Positions 5,061 to 57,723 of a stretch of 64,000 bases of DNA are shown piece after piece. The first letter of the stretch is position 1; every line of letters starts with the position of its first letter. The position numbers and the translations under genes were made by a program. This DNA comes from an uncultured delta proteobacterium (GTDB lineage Bacteria > Desulfobacterota > Binatia > UBA9968), in contig CAWFJP010000004.1 of NCBI GenBank assembly GCA_963816145.1, forward strand, positions 256,001-320,000, read 5' to 3'. The notes under the pieces are model-generated. The model was not told the DNA's origin and ran no database searches. It saw only the letters and a program-made list of their open reading frames with translations.

Positions 5061-5489
5061 ATGATCAAAAATATTGCGTGGATCGCTATCGGTGTGATTG
5101 CGGCTTACTTGATTTGGTGGATAGTCCCAGACTATTTCCACGGGGAGAAAGGTGATCCGCGCTCGCAGGAGCATTTGAGCCGGATCGCCGCCGAGATCAA
5201 TCAAAGCGTGCCGTTCATGATCGATAACGAAACCGAGCTGATGCCGATCTCGGGCCATGAAGGGATGTTGATCTATAATTATCGTCTCGTGAGCTACTCA
5301 GTGAAAAATTTGGATTATCGGCGATTTGCCGCCGGGGCGCGCGACCGCGTCGTGCAAGGCGCCTGCGGGCGGCCGGAGACACGCGACGATTTTCTCAAAA
5401 AAGGCGTGACGCTGCGCTACTCGTACTTCGACAAAGACAAGCAGCATATCGCAACCATCGACGTGACGCCGCGGGATTGCGGGTTTTGA
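5061..5489 (+). CDS. Hypothetical membrane-anchored periplasmic protein
   Basis: N-terminal TM helix and two Cys (possible disulfide). Starts 10 nt after the ArnT-like stop. Confidence 0.7.
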   Translation: MIKNIAWIAIGVIAAYLIWWIVPDYFHGEKGDPRSQEHLSRIAAEINQSVPFMIDNETELMPISGHEGMLIYNYRLVSYSVKNLDYRRFAAGARDRVVQGACGRPETRDDFLKKGVTLRYSYFDKDKQHIATIDVTPRDCGF

Positions 5490-5511
5490 AGATGGACAGA
5501 AATGGCATGAA

Positions 5512-5584
5512 GGCATGGTGGAGTATCAAAATGGCGGCCCTGTCCTAAGCCCGTAGCTGTACCATTCCAATACTCCATCACGCC
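5512..5584. repeat. Imperfect inverted repeat between convergent genes (possible bidirectional terminator / REP-like)
   Basis: GGCATGGTGGAGTAT..AATGG (5512-5534) pairs with CCATT..ATACTCCATCACGCC (5562-5584). Confidence 0.55.
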
Positions 5585-5595
5585 ATGGTTTTTCA

Positions 5596-6633
5596 CTACT
5601 TCAAAATTTCTTTAGAGCGTGGAATTAGTTTGGGGTCGAGTTTGAATACATCCTTGACACTATTCTCTAACTCCTGCCCATCCAGGGGATCGATATCGAG
5701 CTTTGCCTTCTTGGCATCTGCCAGGAATTCTGGATCCTTCATGACGTCCATGAATGCTTTGCGCAGTATCGTTAAACGATCCTTCGGGGTGCCCGGCGGA
5801 AACAAATAGGGCCTCGCTGCTGGGCCAACGCTGTGAACCAGCGCGTTGATTAAATTTCGAGCCTCATCGGTTTTGGCGTAGCTAATCGCTAGCGGGACCT
5901 TGGAAAGTTCGGGGTGCGACTTGGCAGTCGTCTGCAATACGATCTGCAGGTCGCCGCTTTTGAGCTCGTTAGGCCAAGTGGCTGAAAATGACTGCCAAGC
6001 GTTGCACACCCCTTGGACTTCACCGGCGTCGTAAGCCAATCTTACATCCGCGGTGCCTTTGTAACCCGACACGAGTTGCGCGGGCAGTCCTATGGTTGCA
6101 ATCAATACCTTGGGGATATCGTCCGTGGCCGAACCCGCGCCGACACCCCCAAGCTTGACCATGGTCTTGGACGACATCCATTGGTCCATGGTCGACACGC
6201 CAGTATTTTTTTTCGACACGCCGATTACATAGTTGTCCTGGGTCGGGACGCCGATATATTCAAATTTGGCCGCGTCGAACTGGATGCCCGGTTTACCCAG
6301 GAGTTGCTGCAAGAAAAGCCCACCGATGAAGTGACCGATGGTCAGGCCGTCGGGCTTGGCGATATTGTACATATAGTTGGCCGAGATCAGGAATCCGGCG
6401 CCCGGCATATTCTCAACCACAAAGGTCGGGTTGCCCGGGACGTACTTGGAGATATGCCGAGCGATCGTTCGCGAATAGGTATCGTAACCGCCGCCGGCGG
6501 ATGCGCCGACAATGATGCGGACGGTTTTGCCTTGGTAAAAGTTGTCTTGGGCGAAAACCGCACTTTGCTGCAAGCTCGCTGCGATAAAAGCGACGGTGAG
6601 CGCGAAACGCCATCCCTGTTTCATAAGATTCAT
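5596..6633 (-). CDS. Bug/TctC-family tripartite tricarboxylate transporter substrate-binding protein
   Basis: Signal peptide, FYQGKTVRIIVGASAGGGYDTYSR, VENMPGAG, AKPDGLTI and GYKGTADVRLA motifs. Confidence 0.9.
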   Translation of the reverse strand: MNLMKQGWRFALTVAFIAASLQQSAVFAQDNFYQGKTVRIIVGASAGGGYDTYSRTIARHISKYVPGNPTFVVENMPGAGFLISANYMYNIAKPDGLTIGHFIGGLFLQQLLGKPGIQFDAAKFEYIGVPTQDNYVIGVSKKNTGVSTMDQWMSSKTMVKLGGVGAGSATDDIPKVLIATIGLPAQLVSGYKGTADVRLAYDAGEVQGVCNAWQSFSATWPNELKSGDLQIVLQTTAKSHPELSKVPLAISYAKTDEARNLINALVHSVGPAARPYLFPPGTPKDRLTILRKAFMDVMKDPEFLADAKKAKLDIDPLDGQELENSVKDVFKLDPKLIPRSKEILK

Positions 6634-6670
6634 TCTCCTCTCGTTTTCTATGGACGATAGCTAAGAACGA

Positions 6671-7690
6671 TTATTGCAATATCTCTTTTAGCTGATTAAC
6701 GATGGCAGGATCAATCTTGAAAAGCTGATCGACGATTTTTTCAATTTCCTCACCGGTCAACGGATCAATGTCGAGCCGTGATTTTTTCGCGTCGGCAAGA
6801 AACGCTGAATCTTTAAGTGTCTCGACATACGCTTTGCGCAGTACCATTACGCGATCCTTGGGCGTGCCCGGCGCGACGGCGTAAGGACGGGTTATCGCGG
6901 CAGGATCGTGGCCGCCAAATTTCAAAATTTGTTTGGCATTGTCATTAGCCGCGAAGTCGATGGCGTTGGGTACTTTCGCCAATTCGGGGTGCGGCTTGGC
7001 ATTGACTTGCAAGACCATGTACACGTTGCCCGAGTCGAGGCCCTGGCGCCAAATGGACTTGATCGATTCCCACTGCCAACAGCCGCCCGCCACTTCACCG
7101 GCTTCGGCGGCAAGCCTCACTTCCGCCGTGCCTTTATAGCCCGCCACCAGTTGCAATGGCAGCTTGAGCGCGGCGATCAGGAGCTTTGCGGTGTTGTAAG
7201 TCGTGTCGCCTGGGGCGACGCCGCCGATTTTCACTGGCGTCTTGGCATTTCGCAGGGCGTCAAAAGTAGTGATGCCGCTGGCTTTGGTGAAACCGCAGGC
7301 GACGTTATCCTGGGTCGGGATGCCGATGTACTCGAACTTGCGCGCGTCGAACTCGATACCGGGCTTGCCGATGACCTGATTGATCACCTGGTTGCCGTGG
7401 AAATTGAGAATGGTCAGGCCGTCGGGTTTGGCGACCTTGTATACATGATTCGCGGCCAGCAGGCTGGCCGCACCGGTCATGTTCTCAACGACAATGGCGG
7501 GGTTACCGGGAATATGCCCGCCCAGGTGGCGCGCGATCAAGCGCGAGTAGGTGTCGAAGCCGCCGCCAGCGGAGAAGCCAACAATTACTTTAATTGTCTT
7601 GCCTTCGTAGAAAGATGCGGCGCTGCTGGGCGTACCAAAAGCGGTAATTAATCCCAGTCCAAATATTAAACCACTCAGAGTCTTGTTCAT
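6671..7690 (-). CDS. Bug/TctC-family substrate-binding protein (paralog of 5596-6633)
   Basis: Signal peptide, FYEGKTIKVIVGFSAGGGFDTYSR, VENMTGAA and GYKGTAEVRLA motifs. Confidence 0.9.
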   Translation of the reverse strand: MNKTLSGLIFGLGLITAFGTPSSAASFYEGKTIKVIVGFSAGGGFDTYSRLIARHLGGHIPGNPAIVVENMTGAASLLAANHVYKVAKPDGLTILNFHGNQVINQVIGKPGIEFDARKFEYIGIPTQDNVACGFTKASGITTFDALRNAKTPVKIGGVAPGDTTYNTAKLLIAALKLPLQLVAGYKGTAEVRLAAEAGEVAGGCWQWESIKSIWRQGLDSGNVYMVLQVNAKPHPELAKVPNAIDFAANDNAKQILKFGGHDPAAITRPYAVAPGTPKDRVMVLRKAYVETLKDSAFLADAKKSRLDIDPLTGEEIEKIVDQLFKIDPAIVNQLKEILQ

Positions 7691-8041
7691 GCTTTTTTGT
7701 CCTCAAAGTGCCCGGGCCTTTATCGCGGCAATTAAATATGAAACGGCGGGAGAGTCAACTGCGTTACCTCGATCGTCGCTAACGCGCCATCCCGACACCA
7801 ACGTGGATAGTTCCAAGCTTAAAATTGCTCCGCTGCCTCAATCGTTGACAACGGCCCGCGACGACCCGATGCAAACTACCGATTTCGAAACGGCGTGGCA
7901 TGAAATAGTGCGTCGCTCGCGGTGTCATCGATTAGCTCCTACACTTCGGTTTGGCAGGCAGGGGCGCTGTTGCCGATTTCTAAGAATTCCGCTGCGTTAT
8001 AATCACGCTTGTTAAATCGGCCGAATCGACTTAGCGAGACT

Positions 8042-8839
8042 TCAACCCTTGGCTTCGTTGCGCATCTCGGCCAGCAGCTCGTCTTCCCAGGCGCGGCTGC
8101 CGTCAATCGACCATTGAAACCCTGGGTCGCGGATTTCACCGGAGCGGGTGAACTTGGGCAGCTCTTCGAGCGCGCGTGCGAGTACCGCCTCGTTGCGGGC
8201 GCGGTCATGGGGCGGGCCGAAGGTGCGGCCCACCGGATGATCGACAAAGACTGCGCGCGGCGGAGTGACTTTGCTCATGATGTCATGGGCCGTGCCGATC
8301 ATCAGTGTCGGAATGCCCTGGCCTTCGATGACATGAGCGATGAGACCGACGGTCTCATGGCAGAAGGGTCAATAGGGAACTAGTAACGCGAGGTCGACCT
8401 GGGCTTGCTTCAAGTCGCTCGTAATCGCCGTCGCCAGCTGGTTTTCGACCTTATCATGGTCGCGCAAGCCGCCCATGAACGAAAAATGAAACGGTGACAA
8501 ATCGCCGACAACGCCGCGCTTCTGCAAGTTTGCCAATGCCGTGCGTGGAAAAACGATTTCGGGATCCTGCTTCGGCACCCGGCCGATGCCTGAATGATGA
8601 TCGATAATGATCTCTCCCGCGCTCGGATCGGACGGCACGCGCCGGTAGCCGAAATCTTCGCGTGGAATGAACGGCTCCTGATGCGCCAAACGCAATGCCG
8701 CGCTGCTCAACAGCGCGACGCGAGATTCATTTAACGGTTTCTTGATCGGACACCAAGCCGGCTTGGACGGCGCTACCAGCACGCGCGGCGGTTTGGGCGC
8801 CGAGTTTTGCGCCATGACGGGGAGATATTGGAAGGGCAT
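8042..8839 (-). CDS. Selenoprotein of the D-proline/glycine/betaine reductase selenoprotein B (PrdB/GrdB-like) family, 265 aa with Sec at in-frame TGA 8369-8371
   Basis: ORFs 8369-8839 and 8042-8302 are in the same frame. Reading through gives LLVPY-U-PFCHETVGLIAHVIEGQGIPT...PPRAVFVDHPVG (U-x-x-C). N-terminal KPLNESRVALLSSAA and DPEIVFP are family motifs. Confidence 0.88.
8322..8368 (-). promoter_or_regulatory. Putative bacterial SECIS element
   Basis: Immediately 3' of the UGA: CCCTTCTGCC, then perfect stem ATGAGACC-GTC-GGTCTCAT. The G-initiated loop is 18 nt from the UGA. CCTTC/GAAGG can form a lower stem. Confidence 0.75.
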
Positions 8840-9059
8840 AAAAAGAAAGCCTCCGGTGTGGTATTTCTACTTCAGTCATCGACCGGGATCAACTGAATTA
8901 ACCTGGCCGGCAGTCGTTGGGCGATTCGATGGGAATAATCAGACCATCTCACCTCCTGACTGAATATTCTCTTATCGCGGGTTTAAAAGAGTACGAAAAG
9001 TGGCAAGCCATGCCGCCCTACAGAGCTCGAGCCGGGTGTTGTTATCTGAATCGGTCCTG

Positions 9060-9967
9060 TCAAACTTTGGGAATCGGCATCGTGGCCGGATCGTGCTGAT
9101 AGCCGAGCCCGATGAGAAACTTATCGACGTCTCGTAAGGTTTCGTTGAACCACTTTCCATCGCCATGTCGCGGGTTGAAAAAGCCGTGCTTGGCTCCTGC
9201 GTAACCGACGATTTGACACTGATTACCGTAGGCTCTAGCCGCTGCGCAAAACCGTGTCACATCGGCGAAGGGAGCTTTAGTGTCAGCTTTGCCGTGGAGG
9301 ATTAGGGTGGGCGGTAAATCCGGGCCTAGATGATGCAGCGGCGATCCTTCCAGGGCTCGATCGCCGAACCGCTCCTGCAAATGTCCAAGCCAGGTATGAG
9401 TCGTGTCCACTGTCGGATTGAACAGTACGAGTGCGTTAGGTTTCGAACTGATCGTCCGATCCTCGCCGGCCTCATCGAACCTGCTGAAGAGCGCTGCGCT
9501 CAAAGCGATGTGGCCGCCAGCCGAGCCTCCCGACGCGACAATTCGCGTGGGATCGACGTGCAATTGCGTGGCGTGAGCGCGTACCCAGCGCAAAGCGGAT
9601 TTCGCATCGGCTATCGCTTCGAAGGGAGTGGTGCTGTGGCGGCCAAATACACGATAGTCAACTAGGATCGCAACCATGCCACGTTCGGCAAAGTGATGCG
9701 CTTGGGGCACGAACTGAGTGATCGACCCCTCCAGCCAACCGCCGCTAAAAAAAACACCATCGCCGGCCGGCGATCCTGGGGAGTGGCGCTTTCCGGGCCG
9801 AAGACATGCAGCCGCAACTGGTTGCCGCCGATGCTTTTATAGACGTGGGGCGAGGCACCGTCAACAGTCAGCTGCTGTGGCGGAATGGGGTTGGCGCGAG
9901 CCGATGACGCCAGGGAGGCGACGAGCACCGCAACCCCGATGTAACTTTTGTGGTGAATCACTGACAT
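9060..9967 (-). pseudogene. Secreted alpha/beta-hydrolase (HSL-like esterase) split by a 1-nt frameshift in a T8 run at 9747-9754
   Basis: Upstream ORF has a signal peptide and ...RPAMVFF. Adding one T gives VFFFSGGWLEGSITQFVPQA, joining the downstream ORF with GGSAGGH, HGKAD and HGFFN. Confidence 0.8.
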
Positions 9968-10419
9968 GTTTCAATTACCCGTCGCGGGTTTGTCCACGAA
10001 TGCGGCTCTCCGCCTTTTGTTTCTTTTCTGCGAAATTCCACTGATATTTGCCAATATATAAATATAGACGATTGAGCTTAGTCTATTGTTCACACCCCGA
10101 AGACCGGCTGCAAAATAAGTCTGTGTTGCCCATTTTCGGCACAAGAGTGCTTGTGCTCGGCGGTTTGTACCGCGAAGTCATCGGCAACGCACATTATCGT
10201 CGAAAGGCAGGTAACGGGAAAATTTCTTGCGAACCAGCTCGCACCGGGGCGTGAGCAGCGCCGGTGGCCCGGACTTTTGTCGCATTCGATCTTGCAGTAG
10301 CTAAAGCTGCTGGCGCCGGCTGGTTGGCTGGCGAATATAGAGAGGGACATTTTGACAAATATCTCGCCTTTCTCATGGCGAGTGAAATCTCGCCATCGTT
10401 ATGGTAAGCATTTGCCCTC

Positions 10420-15478: not shown

Positions 15479-15555
15479 CGGGGCGTAGCGCAGCCTGGTA
15501 GCGCACCTGCCTTGGGCGCAGGGGGTCGGAAGTTCGAATCTTCTCGCCCCGACCA
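15479..15555 (+). tRNA. tRNA-Pro(TGG)
   Basis: Cloverleaf; anticodon arm CCTGC-CTTGGGC-GCAGG; CCA end. Confidence 0.97.
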
Positions 15556-15580
15556 ACGAACAATGGTATGTGCTGAGCTA

Positions 15581-15628
15581 TGAGTACTGAGTAATGTGGG
15601 GCGGAGGGGAAATTCCCCTCAGTACTCA
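15581..15628. repeat. Inverted repeat in the tRNA spacer
   Basis: TGAGTACTGAG (15581-15591) and CTCAGTACTCA (15618-15628) form a perfect 11-bp IR. An inner GAGGGGAA/TTCCCCTC stem overlaps one arm. Confidence 0.7.
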
Positions 15629-15646
15629 GGACTCGTACTCGATTGG

Positions 15647-15723
15647 GCGCCAGTAGCTCAGCTGGATAGAGCAACGGCCTTCTAAGCCGTAGGTCAGGGG
15701 TTCGAATCCCTTCTGGCGCGCCA
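15647..15723 (+). tRNA. tRNA-Arg(TCT)
   Basis: Anticodon arm ACGGC-CTTCTAA-GCCGT; CCA end. Confidence 0.97.
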
Positions 15724-15734
15724 GACTGTTTTGC

Positions 15735-15812
15735 GGTGAGTGTAGCTCAATTGGTTAGAGCACTGGATTGTGGTTCCAGGGGTTGAGGGTTCAAGTCCCT
15801 TCACTCACCCCA
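15735..15812 (+). tRNA. tRNA-His(GTG), with encoded G-1
   Basis: Anticodon arm CTGGA-TTGTGGT-TCCAG; C discriminator plus CCA. Confidence 0.97.
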
Positions 15813-15897
15813 GTTTGAAATCGGTGAATATCGAGGGTCGAGCATAGGTAACTGCAATCCGCGATCTTCCATTTTTCACGTTTAGTTTTATCCGTGC

Positions 15898-15973
<76 letters not shown>

Positions 15974-46675: not shown

Positions 46676-47503
46676 ATGGCGATTAGAACTTACCGGCCAA
46701 CTTCCGCGGGCATGCGTTTTCGCACCGGCCACACCTTCGACGAGGTGACCAAGGCACGGCCGGAAAAAACCCTGCTGGAACCCAACAATCATAGCGGTGG
46801 GCGCAACAACACTGGCCGGATAACGGCGTTTCATCGTGGCGGTGGCCATAAGCGGCGTTATCGTTTGATCGATTTCAAACGCAACAAGCTCAGAATTCCA
46901 GCCAGGGTCGAGGCCATCGAATACGATCCCAATCGATCCGCCCGTATTGCCCTATTATGTTACGCGGACGGCGTACGGCGCTATATCCTGGCGCCGGAAA
47001 AGCTCCAATTAGGCGCCACGGTTATTGCTGGCGATGACAATATCGACATTCAGCCGGGTAATTCCATGCCTCTTAAGTTCATTCCGGTGGGTACGATTCT
47101 CCACAATATTGAACTTAAGATCGGCAAAGGCGGCCAGCTCGTGCGAAGCGCCGGCTTGGGCGCGCAGTTGATGGCCAAAGAAGGTACCTATGCGCTACTC
47201 AAGCTGCCTTCCGGAGAGTTGCGCTACGTGTTAGCAGAGTGCCGCGCGACGGTCGGGCAAGTAGGTAATGCCGAACAGGAAAATGTTTCCTGGGGCAAGG
47301 CGGGTCGCATGCGCTGGTTGGGTTTTTTACCCGGGAGCCGCGGGATCGCGAAAAATCCTGTCGATCATCCCCATGGCGGCGGTGAAGGCCGATCCAAGGG
47401 GAATCATCCGATGACGCCTTGGGGCAAGCCGACCAAGGGCTATAAAACGCGAAAAAATCAGTCGACCGATAAATATATTGTGCAACGGAGAAAAGGTAGG
47501 TAG
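46676..47503 (+). CDS. rplB: 50S ribosomal protein L2
   Basis: IEYDPNRSA and DHPHGGGEG motifs. Confidence 0.98.
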
Positions 47504-47505
47504 CG

Positions 47506-47826
47506 ATGGCCCGTTCGGTTAAAAAAGGACCTTTTATCGACGAGCATTTGCAGAAAAAGGTCACGGCGATGGCGGAGACTCGCGGTCGCCAGGTGATCCG
47601 CACTTGGTCGCGCCGCTCGACGGTGACGCCGGAGATGGTGGGCCTGACCATCGGCGTGCACAACGGCCGGAAATTCATTCCGGTGTTTGTCAGCGAAAAT
47701 ATGGTCGGCCACAAACTCGGCGAGTTCTCCCCGACGCGGACGTTTTACGCGCATTCTGGGGACCGCAAGAGCGAGGCTAAAGAGTCTGGCGGCGGCGCGC
47801 CGCGGCCAGCACCGACAAAGAGCTAA
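47506..47826 (+). CDS. rpsS: 30S ribosomal protein S19
   Basis: RSVKKGPF and GHKLGEF motifs. Confidence 0.98.
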
Positions 47827-47863
47827 GTCATGCGAAAACCGATTAGGAATGATTGACCAAGTC

Positions 47864-48208
47864 ATGGAAACACGCGCGATCACAAAATTTATCCGGGTCT
47901 CACCGCGAAAAGTGCGTTTGGTGGTGGACCAAATTCGCGGCAAGGGTGTCGAGGAAGCGCTCAATATTCTCAAGTTTATTCCCAAGCGCTCGGCGGGCAT
48001 AGTCGCCAAGACTGTGCGCACGGCAGTGGCTAATGCGGAGAATACCCAGAGCGTTGACGTCGACCGATTATTCGTCAAGCAGGCTAAAGTTGATGAGGCC
48101 GGTATGTGGAAACGTTTTACTTCCCGCGCTCAAGGCCGCGCGACGCGAGTGCGCAAACGGTTGAGCCATGTGACAATCGTCCTCGATGAATCCGAGGAGA
48201 GGAGTTAA
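47864..48208 (+). CDS. rplV: 50S ribosomal protein L22
   Basis: [10 protein letters not shown] and RAQGRA motifs; start chosen by homology. Confidence 0.97.
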
Positions 48209-48215
48209 CTTTAAG

Positions 48216-48878
48216 ATGGGTCAAAAAACGCATCCAAAACTGTTTCGCCTCGGTGTCATCGAGACCTGGGATTCCAAATGGTTTGCGCGCCATGACTACC
48301 CCAAGCTCTTGCACGAAGATTTTCGGATCAAGAAATTTCTTAAGACCCGGCTCTACCATGCGGGTATCTCGCGCATTGAAATTGAACGGGCGGCGAATAA
48401 GGCTAAAATCAACATCCATACGGCGCGACCCGGTATCGTGATCGGCAAGAAGGGCGCGGAGATCGAAAAGCTCAAGGAAGAAATCACCAAGCTCACCCAT
48501 CGTGAAACCTATATCAACATTCACGAAGTGCGGCGGCCGGATTTAGACGCGCAATTGACTTCGGAAAATGTCGCTTTGCAGCTCGAGCGTCGCGTCGCCT
48601 TCCGCCGCGCCATGAAGGAAAGTGTTTCGCGCGCATTACGCATGGGCGCCCAAGGTGTCAGGATTCAATGTGCCGGCCGCCTTGGCGGCTCTGAAATTGC
48701 CCGCACGGAGTGGTACCGAGAAGGTCGTGTGCCGCTGCATACATTACGCGCCGACGTGAATTATGGCACTGCCGAAGCGCATACGACCTACGGCATTATC
48801 GGGGTCAAGGTTTGGATCTTCCGTGGCGAGGTTTTGACCGCAGAAGAAGAACAGCAGAAAGCGATGATGGGCGGTTGA
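48216..48878 (+). CDS. rpsC: 30S ribosomal protein S3
   Basis: MGQKTHP and [10 protein letters not shown] motifs. Confidence 0.98.
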
Positions 48879-48925
48879 TCGATTGGATCTATACGTAGAA
48901 TATCTTTTTCAATATCACCAAGAAA

Positions 48926-49351
48926 ATGCTTGAACCGAAAAAAGTAAAGTTTCGCAAAGTGCAAAAGGGCCGCCGTCGCGGCACGGCACACCGAGGCTCC
49001 ACGCTCGCCTTCGGCGATTATGGGCTGAAAGCGCTGGGGCGGGGATGGATGAGTGCGCGAGAGATCGAGGCTGCTCGGGTTGCCTTGACTCGGTATTTGA
49101 AACGCGGTGGGAAAGTGTGGATTCGCATTTTCCCAGACAAACCGTTGACCAAAAAGCCCTTGGAAACTCGCATGGGCAAAGGCAAAGGCGCCACCGAGAA
49201 ATGGGTCGCGGTGGTCCAGCCGGGACGGATTTTGTTCGAGATGGAAGGTGTCGAAGCCGTGCTTGCCAAGGAAGCCTTTCGTTTGGCGGCGCATAAACTA
49301 TCGATCCCGACCATGATGGTGGAACGCAGAGGATTAGTTCATGGAAGCTAG
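48926..49351 (+). CDS. rplP: 50S ribosomal protein L16
   Basis: RIFPDKP and RMGKGKG motifs. Confidence 0.98.
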
Positions 49352-49544
49352 AGAACTGCGCGGCATGAGCACCGCTGATTTGACCGACAAGCTTGCAACC
49401 CTGCGCGAAGAAATCGGCCACCTGGCGCTGAAGCGAGCGACCAGCCGGTTGGATAATCCCGTGAAGCTGAAAGAGACCAAGCGAGAGCTCGCCCGGGTCG
49501 CAACCATTTTGCGCGAAAAAGCGCTGCAGAGTCAGGAAGGCTGA
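49341..49544 (+). CDS. rpmC: 50S ribosomal protein L29
   Basis: ELR and [10 protein letters not shown] motifs; conserved position. Confidence 0.95.
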
Positions 49545-49546
49545 GC

Positions 49547-49828
49547 ATGGAAGGCAGAGGATTACAGAAACAGCGTAGCGGCGTGGTCGTGAGCGACAAG
49601 ATGGCCAAAACCGTGGTGGTGTCGATTGAGCGGACGGTGATGCACCCCCGATACAAAAAGATTTTGCGCCGACGCTCGAAGGTGAAGGCGCACGACGAAA
49701 CCAATCAGTGCCGAGTCGGCGACCGCGTATTGCTGGTCGAATGCCGGCCCCTCAGTCGTGACAAGCGATGGCGCGTCAGCAAGGTTTTGGAAAAGACCAA
49801 GTCGGGTGCCGAAGTGACCGTCGGGTAG
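49547..49828 (+). CDS. rpsQ: 30S ribosomal protein S17
   Basis: GVVVSDKM and ECRPLSRDKRW motifs. Confidence 0.97.
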   Translation: MEGRGLQKQRSGVVVSDKMAKTVVVSIERTVMHPRYKKILRRRSKVKAHDETNQCRVGDRVLLVECRPLSRDKRWRVSKVLEKTKSGAEVTVG

Positions 49829-49862
49829 TCTTCGCGCGAGGAAAGTGAGTCCAGACTGATTT

Positions 49863-50231
49863 ATGATTCAGACCAATTCAAACTTGGATGTCGCGGATAA
49901 TTCGGGCGCACGGCGAGTTCAATGCATCAAAGTTTTGGGCGGTAGCAAGCGCCGGTACGCTTCCGTCGGCGATATTATTGTCGTCGCGGTTAAAGAAGCG
50001 ATTCCCAACGGCAAAGTGAAAAAGGGCGACGTCGTCAAGGCCGTGGTGGTACGGACGGCCAAGGAACTCGGGCGGCCCGATGGAACCTACATCCGCTTTG
50101 ACAATAACTCAGCGGTGTTGATCGACAATCAAAAAGAGCCGGTGGGAACGCGTATCTTCGGACCGGTGGCGCGTGAACTTCGCGCCAAGAAATTCATGAA
50201 GATCATTTCTCTGGCGCCTGAAGTGCTTTAG
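49863..50231 (+). CDS. rplN: 50S ribosomal protein L14
   Basis: VADNSGA and GTRIFGPV motifs. Confidence 0.99.
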
Positions 50232-50256
50232 CTGGAGTATTGAGGAGAAATCGCTC

Positions 50257-50568
50257 GTGGAGATTCGTAAAAACGACAGCGTGATGGTGATTGCCGGCAA
50301 GGAACGGGGCAAGACCGGCAAAGTCCTGCGCGTGCTGCCCGAGAAGAACGCGGTCATCATTGAGAGGATCAGCATCGTCAAACGGCACACCAAGCCGCGC
50401 GGGCCGCAGCAGACCGGCGGGATCATCGAAAAAGAAGCCGCCATCAATGCTTCCAATGTCATGATGATGTGCGATAAATGCAACGCGCCGGTTCGTATTG
50501 GCCACAAGGATCTCACCGACGGCAAAAAAATTCGCATCTGCCGCCGTTGCAACGAGGCGCTGGAATAG
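50257..50568 (+). CDS. rplX: 50S ribosomal protein L24
   Basis: KOW motif VIAGKERGKTGKV; CxxC...CxxC. Confidence 0.97.
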   Translation: MEIRKNDSVMVIAGKERGKTGKVLRVLPEKNAVIIERISIVKRHTKPRGPQQTGGIIEKEAAINASNVMMMCDKCNAPVRIGHKDLTDGKKIRICRRCNEALE

Positions 50569-50600
50569 TTTGCTAGACCAGTGGGACAATTGAAGTGACC

Positions 50601-51140
50601 ATGGCAAGATTAAAAACCAAATACAAAGATGATGTCGTGCCGGCGATGATCAAGGAGTTCGGTTACAAAAACCCCATGCAGGTACCCAAGCTCAATAAGA
50701 TCACGATCAATGTCGGCTTGGGCGAGGCGACGCAAAATGCCAAGGCGATCGATAGTGCGGTGGTTGATATCACGGCAATCACCGGGCAAAAGCCGGTGGT
50801 AACCAAGTCGAGAAAGGCCATCGCCAACTTCAAGCTGCGCGAAAACATTCCGATCGGCTGCATGGTCACCCTGCGGCGCGATCGCATGTATGAATTTCTC
50901 GACCGCTTGATCCACACCGCGTTGCCCCGGGTGCGCGATTTCAAAGGCGTGTCGGACAAATCCTTCGACGGCCGTGGCAATTATTCTTTGGGCCTGCGTG
51001 AACAGATTATTTTTCCAGAGATTCAAGCCGACAAAGTCGACAAAACCAGGGGTATGACGATCACGATAGCGACCTCGGCGACTACCGATCAGGAAGGCCG
51101 GACTTTGCTTCGGCTCATGGGTATGCCGTTCGCGAGTTAG
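50601..51140 (+). CDS. rplE: 50S ribosomal protein L5
   Basis: ITGQKP, PRVRDF and FDGRGNY motifs. Confidence 0.98.
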
Positions 51141-51157
51141 TGTAGGGGGAAATTCCA

Positions 51158-51343
51158 TTGGCCAAGACATGTCTGAGAATTAAGGCCGAACGACCAAACA
51201 AGTTTAAAGTTCGGGAATACAACCGCTGTCCGCTGTGCGGGCGTTCGCGGGCATTTTATCGCCGTTTTCGCATGTGCCGGTTATGTCTGCGCGATAACGC
51301 GCGCAAGGGAAATATCCCCGGACTGATCAAGGCCAGTTGGTAG
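51158..51343 (+). CDS. rpsN: 30S ribosomal protein S14, type Z
   Basis: 61 aa; CPLC...CRLC and ASW end; TTG start. Confidence 0.97.
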   Translation: MAKTCLRIKAERPNKFKVREYNRCPLCGRSRAFYRRFRMCRLCLRDNARKGNIPGLIKASW

Positions 51344-56876: not shown

Positions 56877-57260
56877 ATGGCACGTATCGCAGGGGTTGAC
56901 TTACCGAGGGCCAAACGGATGGAAATCGCGCTGACTTATGTTTACGGCATTGGCCGCAGCACGTCGCGCGATATTCTGACGGCTGCCGGGGTTTCTTTGG
57001 ATTTGCGCAGCGACGATTTGAGCGACGACGATGTCGCGAAAATTCGTCAGGTGCTCGATCAGAGCTACAAAGTCGAAGGCGATCTGCGCCGCGAGGTGAC
57101 TGGCAATATCAAACGGCACTTGGACATGGGTTCTTACCGCGGTCTACGCCATCGCAAGAATTTACCGGTGCGTGGCCAGCGTACCCATACCAACGCGCGC
57201 ACCCGCAAGGGGCCGCGCAAAACCGTCGCCGGCAAAAAAACCGCGCCGTCCAAGGGTTAA
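56877..57260 (+). CDS. rpsM: 30S ribosomal protein S13
   Basis: ARIAGV and PVRGQRT motifs. Confidence 0.98.
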
Positions 57261-57279
57261 TATAAGTTAGGAGAATGTC

Positions 57280-57723
57280 ATGGCAGATGCTGCGGATGAA
57301 AAGAAGAGCGAAGCGCCGGCGGGCGATGCCAAAGCCGTTGACAAGGCGGCGGCCCGCAAACGGCGCGGCCGCAAGAATATTGCCGAGGGTGTGGTGCATA
57401 TCCATTCCACTTTCAATAACACCATCGTGACGATCTCGGATTATCAGGGCAATGTGATCTCCTGGTCGAGCGCCGGCGCGATGGGTTTCAAAGGCTCGCG
57501 CAAAGGCACCCCGTTCGCGGCCCAGCAGGCCGCCGATAGCGCCGCCAAGAAAGCCATGGATCATGGCTTACGCACGGTACAAATCTATGTCCGCGGCCCC
57601 GGCGCAGGACGCGAGTCGGCGCTGCGCGCGCTGCAGTCGGCGGGTATAAGCATCAGTCTGATCAAAGACGTTACGCCGATCCCGCACAACGGTTGCCGCC
57701 CGCCCAAGCGGCGGCGGGTCTGA
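57280..57723 (+). CDS. rpsK: 30S ribosomal protein S11
   Basis: STFNNT and [14 protein letters not shown] motifs. Confidence 0.98.

Follow-up and report, generated by a model that had tools for sequence, protein, structure and literature searches.

Does an in-frame UGA codon that separates two neighbouring open reading frames (ORFs) end the first of them, or is it decoded as selenocysteine (Sec), so that both belong to one gene? The question is raised by a locus on the minus strand of a 64,000-nt stretch of contig CAWFJP010000004.1 from an uncultured delta proteobacterium (the window, to which all coordinates refer), where an earlier reading of the letters, here called the original prediction, had proposed a selenoprotein split in two by gene callers. 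Comparison with related loci and homologous proteins makes it very probable that positions 8839–8045 are one gene, in which the UGA is decoded as Sec and whose product is a selenoprotein of 265 residues in the PrdB/GrdB superfamily. The proposal draws its support from the conservation of the UGA, from Cys-containing homologues and from constraint on an adjacent hairpin that resembles a bacterial Sec insertion sequence (SECIS).

Reading frame across the UGA codon

The ORF list obtained with translation table 11 contains a 156-aa ORF at 8839–8369 and an 86-aa ORF at 8302–8042, the latter beginning at an internal ATG, which share one frame on the minus strand. The TGA at 8371–8369 is the sole stop read on that strand between 8839 and 8042, and with this codon translated as U the joined product comprises 265 residues and runs through ...LLVPY-U157-PFC160-HETVGLIA..., while its amino-terminal MPFxYLP is kept across related loci. 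The sequence and the ORF list therefore confirm the first element of the original prediction, namely two same-frame minus-strand ORFs split only by a TGA, with a joined product of 265 aa.

Conservation of the UGA codon and of the sequence beyond it

Related loci were collected by a tblastn-type scan of 185,579 species genomes, which yielded 43 loci (L001 to L043) of ∼12 kb each, most of them hosted by metagenome-assembled genomes (MAGs) labelled uncultured delta proteobacterium, Thermodesulfobacteriota, Syntrophobacter(aceae) or Candidatus Binatia. The UGA column can be read in 42 of these loci, L042 being left out because its contig ends before the site, and it is TGA in 42/42, with TAA, TAG or a Cys codon (TGY) in 0/42. 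The TGA-bearing loci span identities of 38%–89% and include L039 (49%) and the Acidimicrobiales locus L043 (38%).

The sequence beyond the UGA behaves as coding sequence. The tblastn matches cover residues 1–262 in most loci, codon-position entropies downstream of the UGA (0.59/0.47/1.28) resemble those upstream (0.70/0.44/1.37), and the 22 in-frame codons from the UGA to M180, the C160 motif among them, belong to the most strongly conserved stretches of the protein. Across 95 downstream codons in 38 sequences, a single stop falls in frame 0 (in L018), compared with 102 and 106 in the other two frames. That one stop is an in-frame TAG 94 codons past the UGA and 13 codons short of the usual end; separately, L037, L040 and L041 carry frame disruptions in the amino-terminal half with the UGA and SECIS site intact. 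The disruptions in these four loci could be assembly errors or real decay.

Database proteins bear the mark of the same codon. The best 120 matches comprise 113 proteins of 156 aa, five of 148 aa, one of 149 aa and one of 259 aa, and 117 of the 119 short ones have the carboxy-terminal ...PY exactly at the UGA, a position at which even matches of only 43–50% identity terminate. The single long match (P0002, 67% identical) has W at the UGA column, with similarity continuing to the C-terminus, and is probably the product of a translation in which TGA was taken as Trp. At least 15 representative clusters contain nothing but the post-UGA part.

The stops of 54 window genes are TAA in 22, TAG in 20 and TGA in 12, the PrdB-like gene being among the last, which indicates that the genetic code is standard here. 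The terminal stop of the PrdB-like gene is itself TGA in 40/42 loci.

The SECIS-like hairpin

The hairpin beside the UGA is formed by a 5′ arm ATGAGACC (8358–8351) and a 3′ arm GGTCTCAT (8347–8340), which make eight perfect pairs around the loop GTC (8350–8348); the loop G is separated from the A of the UGA by 18 nt, and the inner 6 bp of the stem, GAGACC/GGUCUC, form its conserved core. The perfect 8-bp stem, the loop opening with G and the 18-nt distance had all been described correctly in the earlier note, which left unstated that the loop is only 3 nt long. Among the 1952 TGA trinucleotides on both strands of the window, 13 are followed 5–25 nt on by a perfect stem of at least 8 bp with a 3–10 nt loop, and eight when a G is also asked for in the first two loop positions. 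The hairpin alone is thus uncommon and not decisive, and it is the comparison with related loci that carries the real weight. When the 45 nt from the UGA are folded, the minimum free energy (MFE) is −16.1 kcal/mol (z = −3.63), a value equalled by 1/200 shuffles.

Under a published model of the bacterial SECIS (bSECIS), the loop has 3–9 nt and the stem 4–16 bp, the UGA and the loop are 16–37 nt apart, the MFE does not exceed −7.5 kcal/mol, and a G occurs within the first two loop positions, as a rule with G or U after it (PMC13188914, Fig. 2 legend). The present element lies within all of these limits: its loop is GUC, its stem has 8 bp, its spacing is 18 nt, and the 19-nt hairpin folded by itself has an MFE of −9.7 kcal/mol. 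With the 19-nt hairpin alone, 42/43 sequences reach the energy limit. The element resembles the bSECIS consensus in its place within the ORF just 3′ of the UGA, in a loop that starts with G-U and in a stem of which 6 bp are conserved, and differs from it in that the loop is of the smallest permitted size. The SECIS of E. coli fdhF combines a 4-nt loop with a bulged U; the hairpin described here is without a bulge. At gathering thresholds, Rfam reports only tRNAs and no SECIS in the window, and bacterial SECIS elements are, according to one preprint, poorly represented in Rfam.

Classical covariation was dropped as a test of the SECIS because it is too weak, and was replaced by a test of synonymous sites on a codon alignment of 39 sequences, assembled without L037, L040 and L041, whose frames are disrupted, the truncated L042 and the overly distant L043. 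Over 135 conserved degenerate codon columns the mean normalised codon entropy is 0.68, and an entropy below 0.2 bits is found only at GAG162, ACC163, GGT165 and CTC166 (4/135 columns), which make up both arms of the stem; the loop codon GTC164 is also low, with a normalised entropy of 0.32. The five-codon window of the hairpin is the lowest of 131, and 0/100000 random draws of five columns were as low. Synonymous sites vary freely at P158, F159 and H161 before the stem and at H169, E172 and G175 after it. Stem codons that show almost no synonymous change between flanks that are free to vary point to selection on the RNA and not on the protein alone. Pairing is kept in 92.2% of cells, compared with 25–40% when the partner column is slid, and double changes that retain pairing occur at two pairs only, from U-A to C-G in L036 and L039 and from G-C to C-G in L043. 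The claim of a SECIS-like hairpin beside the UGA thus agrees both with the published bacterial model and with the constraint on synonymous sites.

These results also bear on whether the gene is simply broken. A lone in-frame stop does resemble a fresh nonsense mutation, here in a Cys-containing PrdB-like gene with a coincidental hairpin, and the frame disruptions of L037, L040 and L041 and the early TAG of L018 are what a decaying family might display. The chance of such a pseudogene is nevertheless negligible, as the identical TGA recurs in all 42 loci over the full span of identities, the pattern of purifying selection is the same downstream as upstream, and the synonymous sites of the hairpin are frozen.

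Protein family, catalytic column and predicted fold

The joined protein aligns over nearly its whole length with the NCBIfam model of PrdB, TIGR04483 (residues 24–237 against profile positions 16–228 of 238; E = 2.4e-34), a profile that is also matched by 60/60 members of an alignment of full-length homologues. The GrdB-type models (TIGR01918/TIGR01917) align residues 89–204/225 below their cut-offs, TIGR01918 matching residues 89–204 at profile positions 279–396 of 431 and across the Sec column. Had homology ended at the UGA, the case for one gene would have been weakened; instead, the matches of TIGR04483, TIGR01918 and tblastn all run past it. The Pfam model PF07355 (GRDB) matches residues 89–153 at profile positions 281–344 of 347 and ends four residues before the Sec column, but this apparent end of homology was rejected as an artefact, since the profile itself ends there and the longer TIGR profiles cross the column. 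PF07355 seems to end at the Sec codon, so that with this model homology can falsely appear to stop at a UGA.

What distant relatives carry at the UGA column was read from 99 full-length homologues of 23–37% identity (101 aligned sequences in all), in which the column holds C in 74, S in 8, G in 7, W in 3 and other residues in 7; overall, four aligned database proteins, P0002 included, have W there. Column 160 is Cys in 82/101 of the aligned sequences. In P0219, a certified PrdB (453.2 bits against the TIGR04483 cut-off of 300) that is 27% identical to the window protein, C-G-T-C-H aligns with U157-P-F-C160-H, and the U/C-x-x-C motif that characterises PrdB is therefore found at the catalytic column. 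The check for Cys or Sec at this column, which the original prediction had called for, accordingly found homologues with Cys or UGA.

An AlphaFold2 model built on the 60-member alignment predicts one compact α/β domain across both halves (predicted local distance difference test score, pLDDT, 95.9; predicted template modelling score, pTM, 0.93). U157 opens a helix (158–173) that directly follows a strand (150–154), and a β-α-β unit straddles the UGA. The N-terminus of a helix after a strand is the usual place of a redox-active CxxC.

The gene callers yield exactly two ORFs, and the databases hold many 156-aa entries together with separate carboxy-terminal fragments, as would be expected if the locus gave two separate products, one a 156-aa protein ending at UGA157 and the other made from an internal start such as the ATG at 8302. 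A true stop would, however, drift among TAA, TAG and TGA, whereas the TGA is invariant; the 22 in-frame codons between the UGA and M180 are highly conserved; full-length homologues continue through the column with Cys; and the predicted fold is one domain with a β-α-β unit across the UGA. Two separate products are consequently very improbable, and a single protein with Sec at position 157 is preferred.

Counter-evidence and decoding without selenium

Several observations count against a Sec-containing member of this superfamily. At the RNA level, a 66-nt stretch folds at z = −1.01, equalled by 32/200 shuffles, and the most distant locus, L043, folds poorly (−3.0 kcal/mol over 19 nt, z = 0.19 over 45 nt). 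A C·A mismatch occupies the second outer pair in 23/43 sequences, so that only the inner 6 bp are conserved; RNAalifold retains only the inner 5 pairs and credits covariation with −0.02 kcal/mol, and classical covariation is weak because the stem barely varies. At the protein level, the scores fall short of the curated cut-offs of TIGR04483 (118.8 bits against 300), TIGR01918 (33.5 against 65.45) and PF07355 (16.7 against 22), and Foldseek returned 0 solved structures resembling the model at E ≤ 0.001. At the level of the genome, selA, selB and selD were not found in scans of the 64-kb window, the rest of the genome being outside their scope, and tRNA-Sec was not found in the window or in the 43 loci of ∼12 kb.

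The family assignment made in the original prediction is consequently only partly upheld. Homology to the GRDB/PrdB superfamily extends across the UGA, while all PrdB and GrdB cut-offs are missed, and with no prdA nearby the protein is not certified as either PrdB or GrdB; of 20 members of the 60-sequence alignment that were scanned individually, P0219 was the only one to reach the PrdB cut-off. Judged by its sequence, the protein is a PrdB-like member of the PrdB/GrdB superfamily and not a demonstrated D-proline reductase.

As Sec machinery was not seen in the sequence examined (the window and the 43 loci), read-through without selenium has to be considered, whether as Cys (through Cys-tRNASec or a near-cognate tRNA), as Trp, or through a reassigned UGA; the W found at the column in four aligned database proteins, including P0002, might be taken in its favour. 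With UGA ending 12/54 window genes, however, the code is standard, and the W entries are most simply explained by a pipeline that reads TGA as Trp. Homologues carry Cys, the usual counterpart of Sec, and not Trp, and a conserved hairpin of bSECIS type at the canonical distance is needed for SelB-dependent decoding, not for plain read-through. Selenium-free decoding is for these reasons improbable, if less so than either a pseudogene or two separate products, and insertion of Sec remains the favoured explanation.

Proposed decoding and catalytic mechanism

As its conservation suggests, UGA157 would be read as selenocysteine. The hairpin within the ORF, with its core GAGACC/GGUCUC and loop GUC, may act as a bacterial SECIS that brings the SelB–GTP–Sec-tRNASec complex to the ribosome when the UGA occupies the A site. 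In the finished protein, U157 and C160 would make up the redox pair of a U-x-x-C motif where a helix begins, as homology to PrdB and GrdB and the predicted model suggest. By analogy with these homologues, the selenol may carry out a nucleophilic attack leading to reductive cleavage and to a selenenyl-sulfide with C160, which would then be re-reduced by a thiol or an electron donor. The catalytic steps are drawn from homology, since no solved structure resembles the model; sequence and profile searches for solved relatives likewise gave no credible match, those listed being low-complexity helices or generic α/β folds.

Relation to known selenoproteins

PrdB and GrdB are listed as UxxC selenoproteins in review tables. 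The window protein resembles clostridial PrdB, a subunit of D-proline reductase, in its near full-length homology, its similar size and the conservation of C160 and H161, and differs from it in that no prd genes lie nearby and in its hosts, which are not clostridia but MAGs labelled delta proteobacterium, Thermodesulfobacteriota, Syntrophobacter or Candidatus Binatia. With GrdB, GrdF and GrdH (protein B of glycine, sarcosine and betaine reductase) it shares the UxxC motif and an alignment across the Sec column. In contrast to GrdB, it lacks ∼280 amino-terminal residues (265 aa compared with ∼430 aa) and so aligns with only the last third of the profile, its scores are below the cut-off, and grdA, grdC and grdE were not found nearby.

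Environmental surveys have placed PrdB-type proteins among the commoner selenoproteins. In the Sargasso Sea, "Proline reductase PrdB" was reported as the third most abundant selenoprotein family, with 42 Sec forms and one Cys form (Zhang et al., 2005, PMC1088965), and PrdB was among the most abundant families in the Global Ocean Sampling (GOS) data, with 235 Sec and 110 Cys forms (Zhang and Gladyshev, 2008, PMC2398784). The selenoproteins listed for Anaeromyxobacter dehalogenans and Geobacter uraniumreducens likewise include "Proline reductase" (PMC1794560). The window gene resembles the marine metagenome family in being PrdB-related, in its UxxC motif and in the predominance of Sec over Cys forms, a likeness drawn from description and not from sequence. 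A literature search found no paper pairing "PrdB-like" with "selenoprotein", and in a search on Binatia or Binatota and selenocysteine neither taxon was named among the matches listed. Knowledge of PrdB-type UxxC selenoproteins in metagenomes goes back to 2005, and the present gene is a further, unannotated member of that kind; it is a well-supported example of one that is PrdB-like and has no PrdA nearby, and it leaves knowledge of selenoprotein families and of the decoding mechanism unchanged.

The consequences are greatest for annotation. Because gene callers end the gene at the UGA, 119 of the 120 best database matches are stumps of 148–156 aa; those protein entries therefore lack the catalytic half, which carries the U-x-x-C centre and which no curated model reaches. 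The conserved UGA and SECIS imply that these uncultured bacteria keep Sec machinery and need selenium, a trait that metabolic reconstructions from MAGs would miss.

Genomic neighbourhood and possible function

The features of the gene and of the binding-protein genes that follow it are collected in Table 1.

Table 1. Positions of the PrdB-like gene, its sequence elements and the adjoining solute-binding protein genes in the window.
Feature	Position	Strand	Details
PrdB-like selenoprotein coding sequence (predicted)	8045..8839	-	265 codons including UGA157; terminal stop TGA 8044-8042
In-frame UGA, predicted Sec codon U157	8369..8371	-	TGA in 42/42 loci; Cys in distant homologues
Cys160 codon TGC, resolving Cys of U-x-x-C	8360..8362	-	TGC/TGT in 39/39 sequences
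SECIS-like hairpin	8340..8358	-	arms 8358-8351 / 8347-8340, loop GUC 8350-8348
GGAGG, motif resembling a ribosome-binding site	8850..8854	-	10 nt before the ATG at 8839; read from the sequence
TctC-like paralogue, 339 aa	6671..7690	-	54% identical to the product of 5596-6633; no Pfam or NCBIfam match of its own
TctC (Bug/TTT) solute-binding protein gene, 345 aa	5596..6633	-	Pfam PF03401, 30.8 bits (cut-off 27)

The window was scanned with NCBIfam over 36 ORFs, outside a block at 30–57 kb that we take, from the sizes and order of its ORFs, to hold rpoBC and the ribosomal-protein operons, and with Pfam over 13 ORFs. None of the ORFs in either scan is prdA, prdC or another prd gene, so that the partner prdA or prd operon that accompanies PrdB is missing from the local neighbourhood. 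PrdA-like or Grd genes were likewise not found among 36 flanking ORFs of eight non-syntenic loci (8 of 12 such loci being examined). The window is chromosomal in character, with nasC/fdh-like, cobA, tig-clpP-clpX-lon, tuf, cysDN and tRNA genes.

One or two TctC-type relatives lie downstream of the PrdB-like gene in 31/43 loci, and the wider region, with yggS, an aldehyde dehydrogenase and a tRNA cluster, is also syntenic. The cluster, Pro(tgg)-Arg(tct)-His(gtg)-Lys(ctt) at 15479–15973, is kept in order and orientation in 14/43 loci and, without Lys, in L013 as well, and its conservation indicates that the whole region is syntenic across the lineage. The shared TctC neighbourhood may thus reflect relatedness rather than function. 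Among the eight non-syntenic loci, an NMT1/THI5-like binding-protein gene adjoins the PrdB-like gene in three (L014, L038 and L039). Beside or directly downstream of it are also found a gene of the ornithine cyclodeaminase/mu-crystallin family (L038:7583-8668), an Asp/Glu/hydantoin-racemase gene (L043:6620-7525) and a gene for a CCG/4Fe-4S protein of the HdrD/GlpC type (L029:5310-6578), neighbours suggestive of amino-acid metabolism and of a candidate electron donor.

The clade could, somewhat doubtfully, be a PrdA-independent selenoenzyme with a substrate of its own and not a subunit of D-proline reductase. This suggestion is raised by circumstantial evidence: the Cys form was not seen in the clade, all 42 members with the site having UGA, the SECIS is near-frozen, and the fold has no solved relative; genes for solute-binding proteins recur, of the TctC/Bug type in 31/43 loci and of the NMT1 type in 3/8; and a racemase gene is present in L043 and an ornithine-cyclodeaminase gene in L038. 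Such a neighbourhood would fit an enzyme that reductively cleaves an amino-acid-like or carboxylate compound taken up by these poorly known uncultured bacteria, many of which bear the label Candidatus Binatia.

Other observations on the window

Upstream of the PrdB-like gene, the window has ∼1.6 kb of extra sequence (8840–10419), at a place where yggS adjoins the gene in many loci. This segment holds a 216-aa ORF at 9060–9710, an α/β-hydrolase of the esterase families that is probably truncated at its amino terminus, and a 108-aa ORF at 9718–10044; neither has a relative in the 43 loci.

Downstream, the spacer before the first binding-protein gene (7691–8041) is 351 nt long in the window, ∼3–3.5 kb in L001, L002, L035 and L037 and ∼70–150 nt in most other loci. 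A scan for promoters and terminators over 5400–9300 gave counts at or below shuffle expectation and was uninformative on co-transcription with the binding-protein genes. TTGAC spans the terminal stop in 28/43 sequences (the window and 42 loci), and a canonical TAnnnT −10 hexamer follows 15–19 nt downstream in 1/28 of these. About 20 nt past the stop, many loci from L003 to L041 share, by eye, a motif such as TTTCATAGTTAATTGCC, which is absent from the window at 8041–7990; this post-stop motif might serve the binding-protein genes as a promoter or operator.

Other read-through candidates for selenoproteins in the window, each with 40 or more codons on either side of its TGA, were rejected because they lie inside or antisense to better genes or in the non-conserved insert at 9.7–10.4 kb. 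At 47458–51170 and 57109–57564, ORFs of 118–206 aa on the minus strand run antisense to the presumed ribosomal-protein operons; these ORFs, and the read-through pairs found there, are probably spurious.

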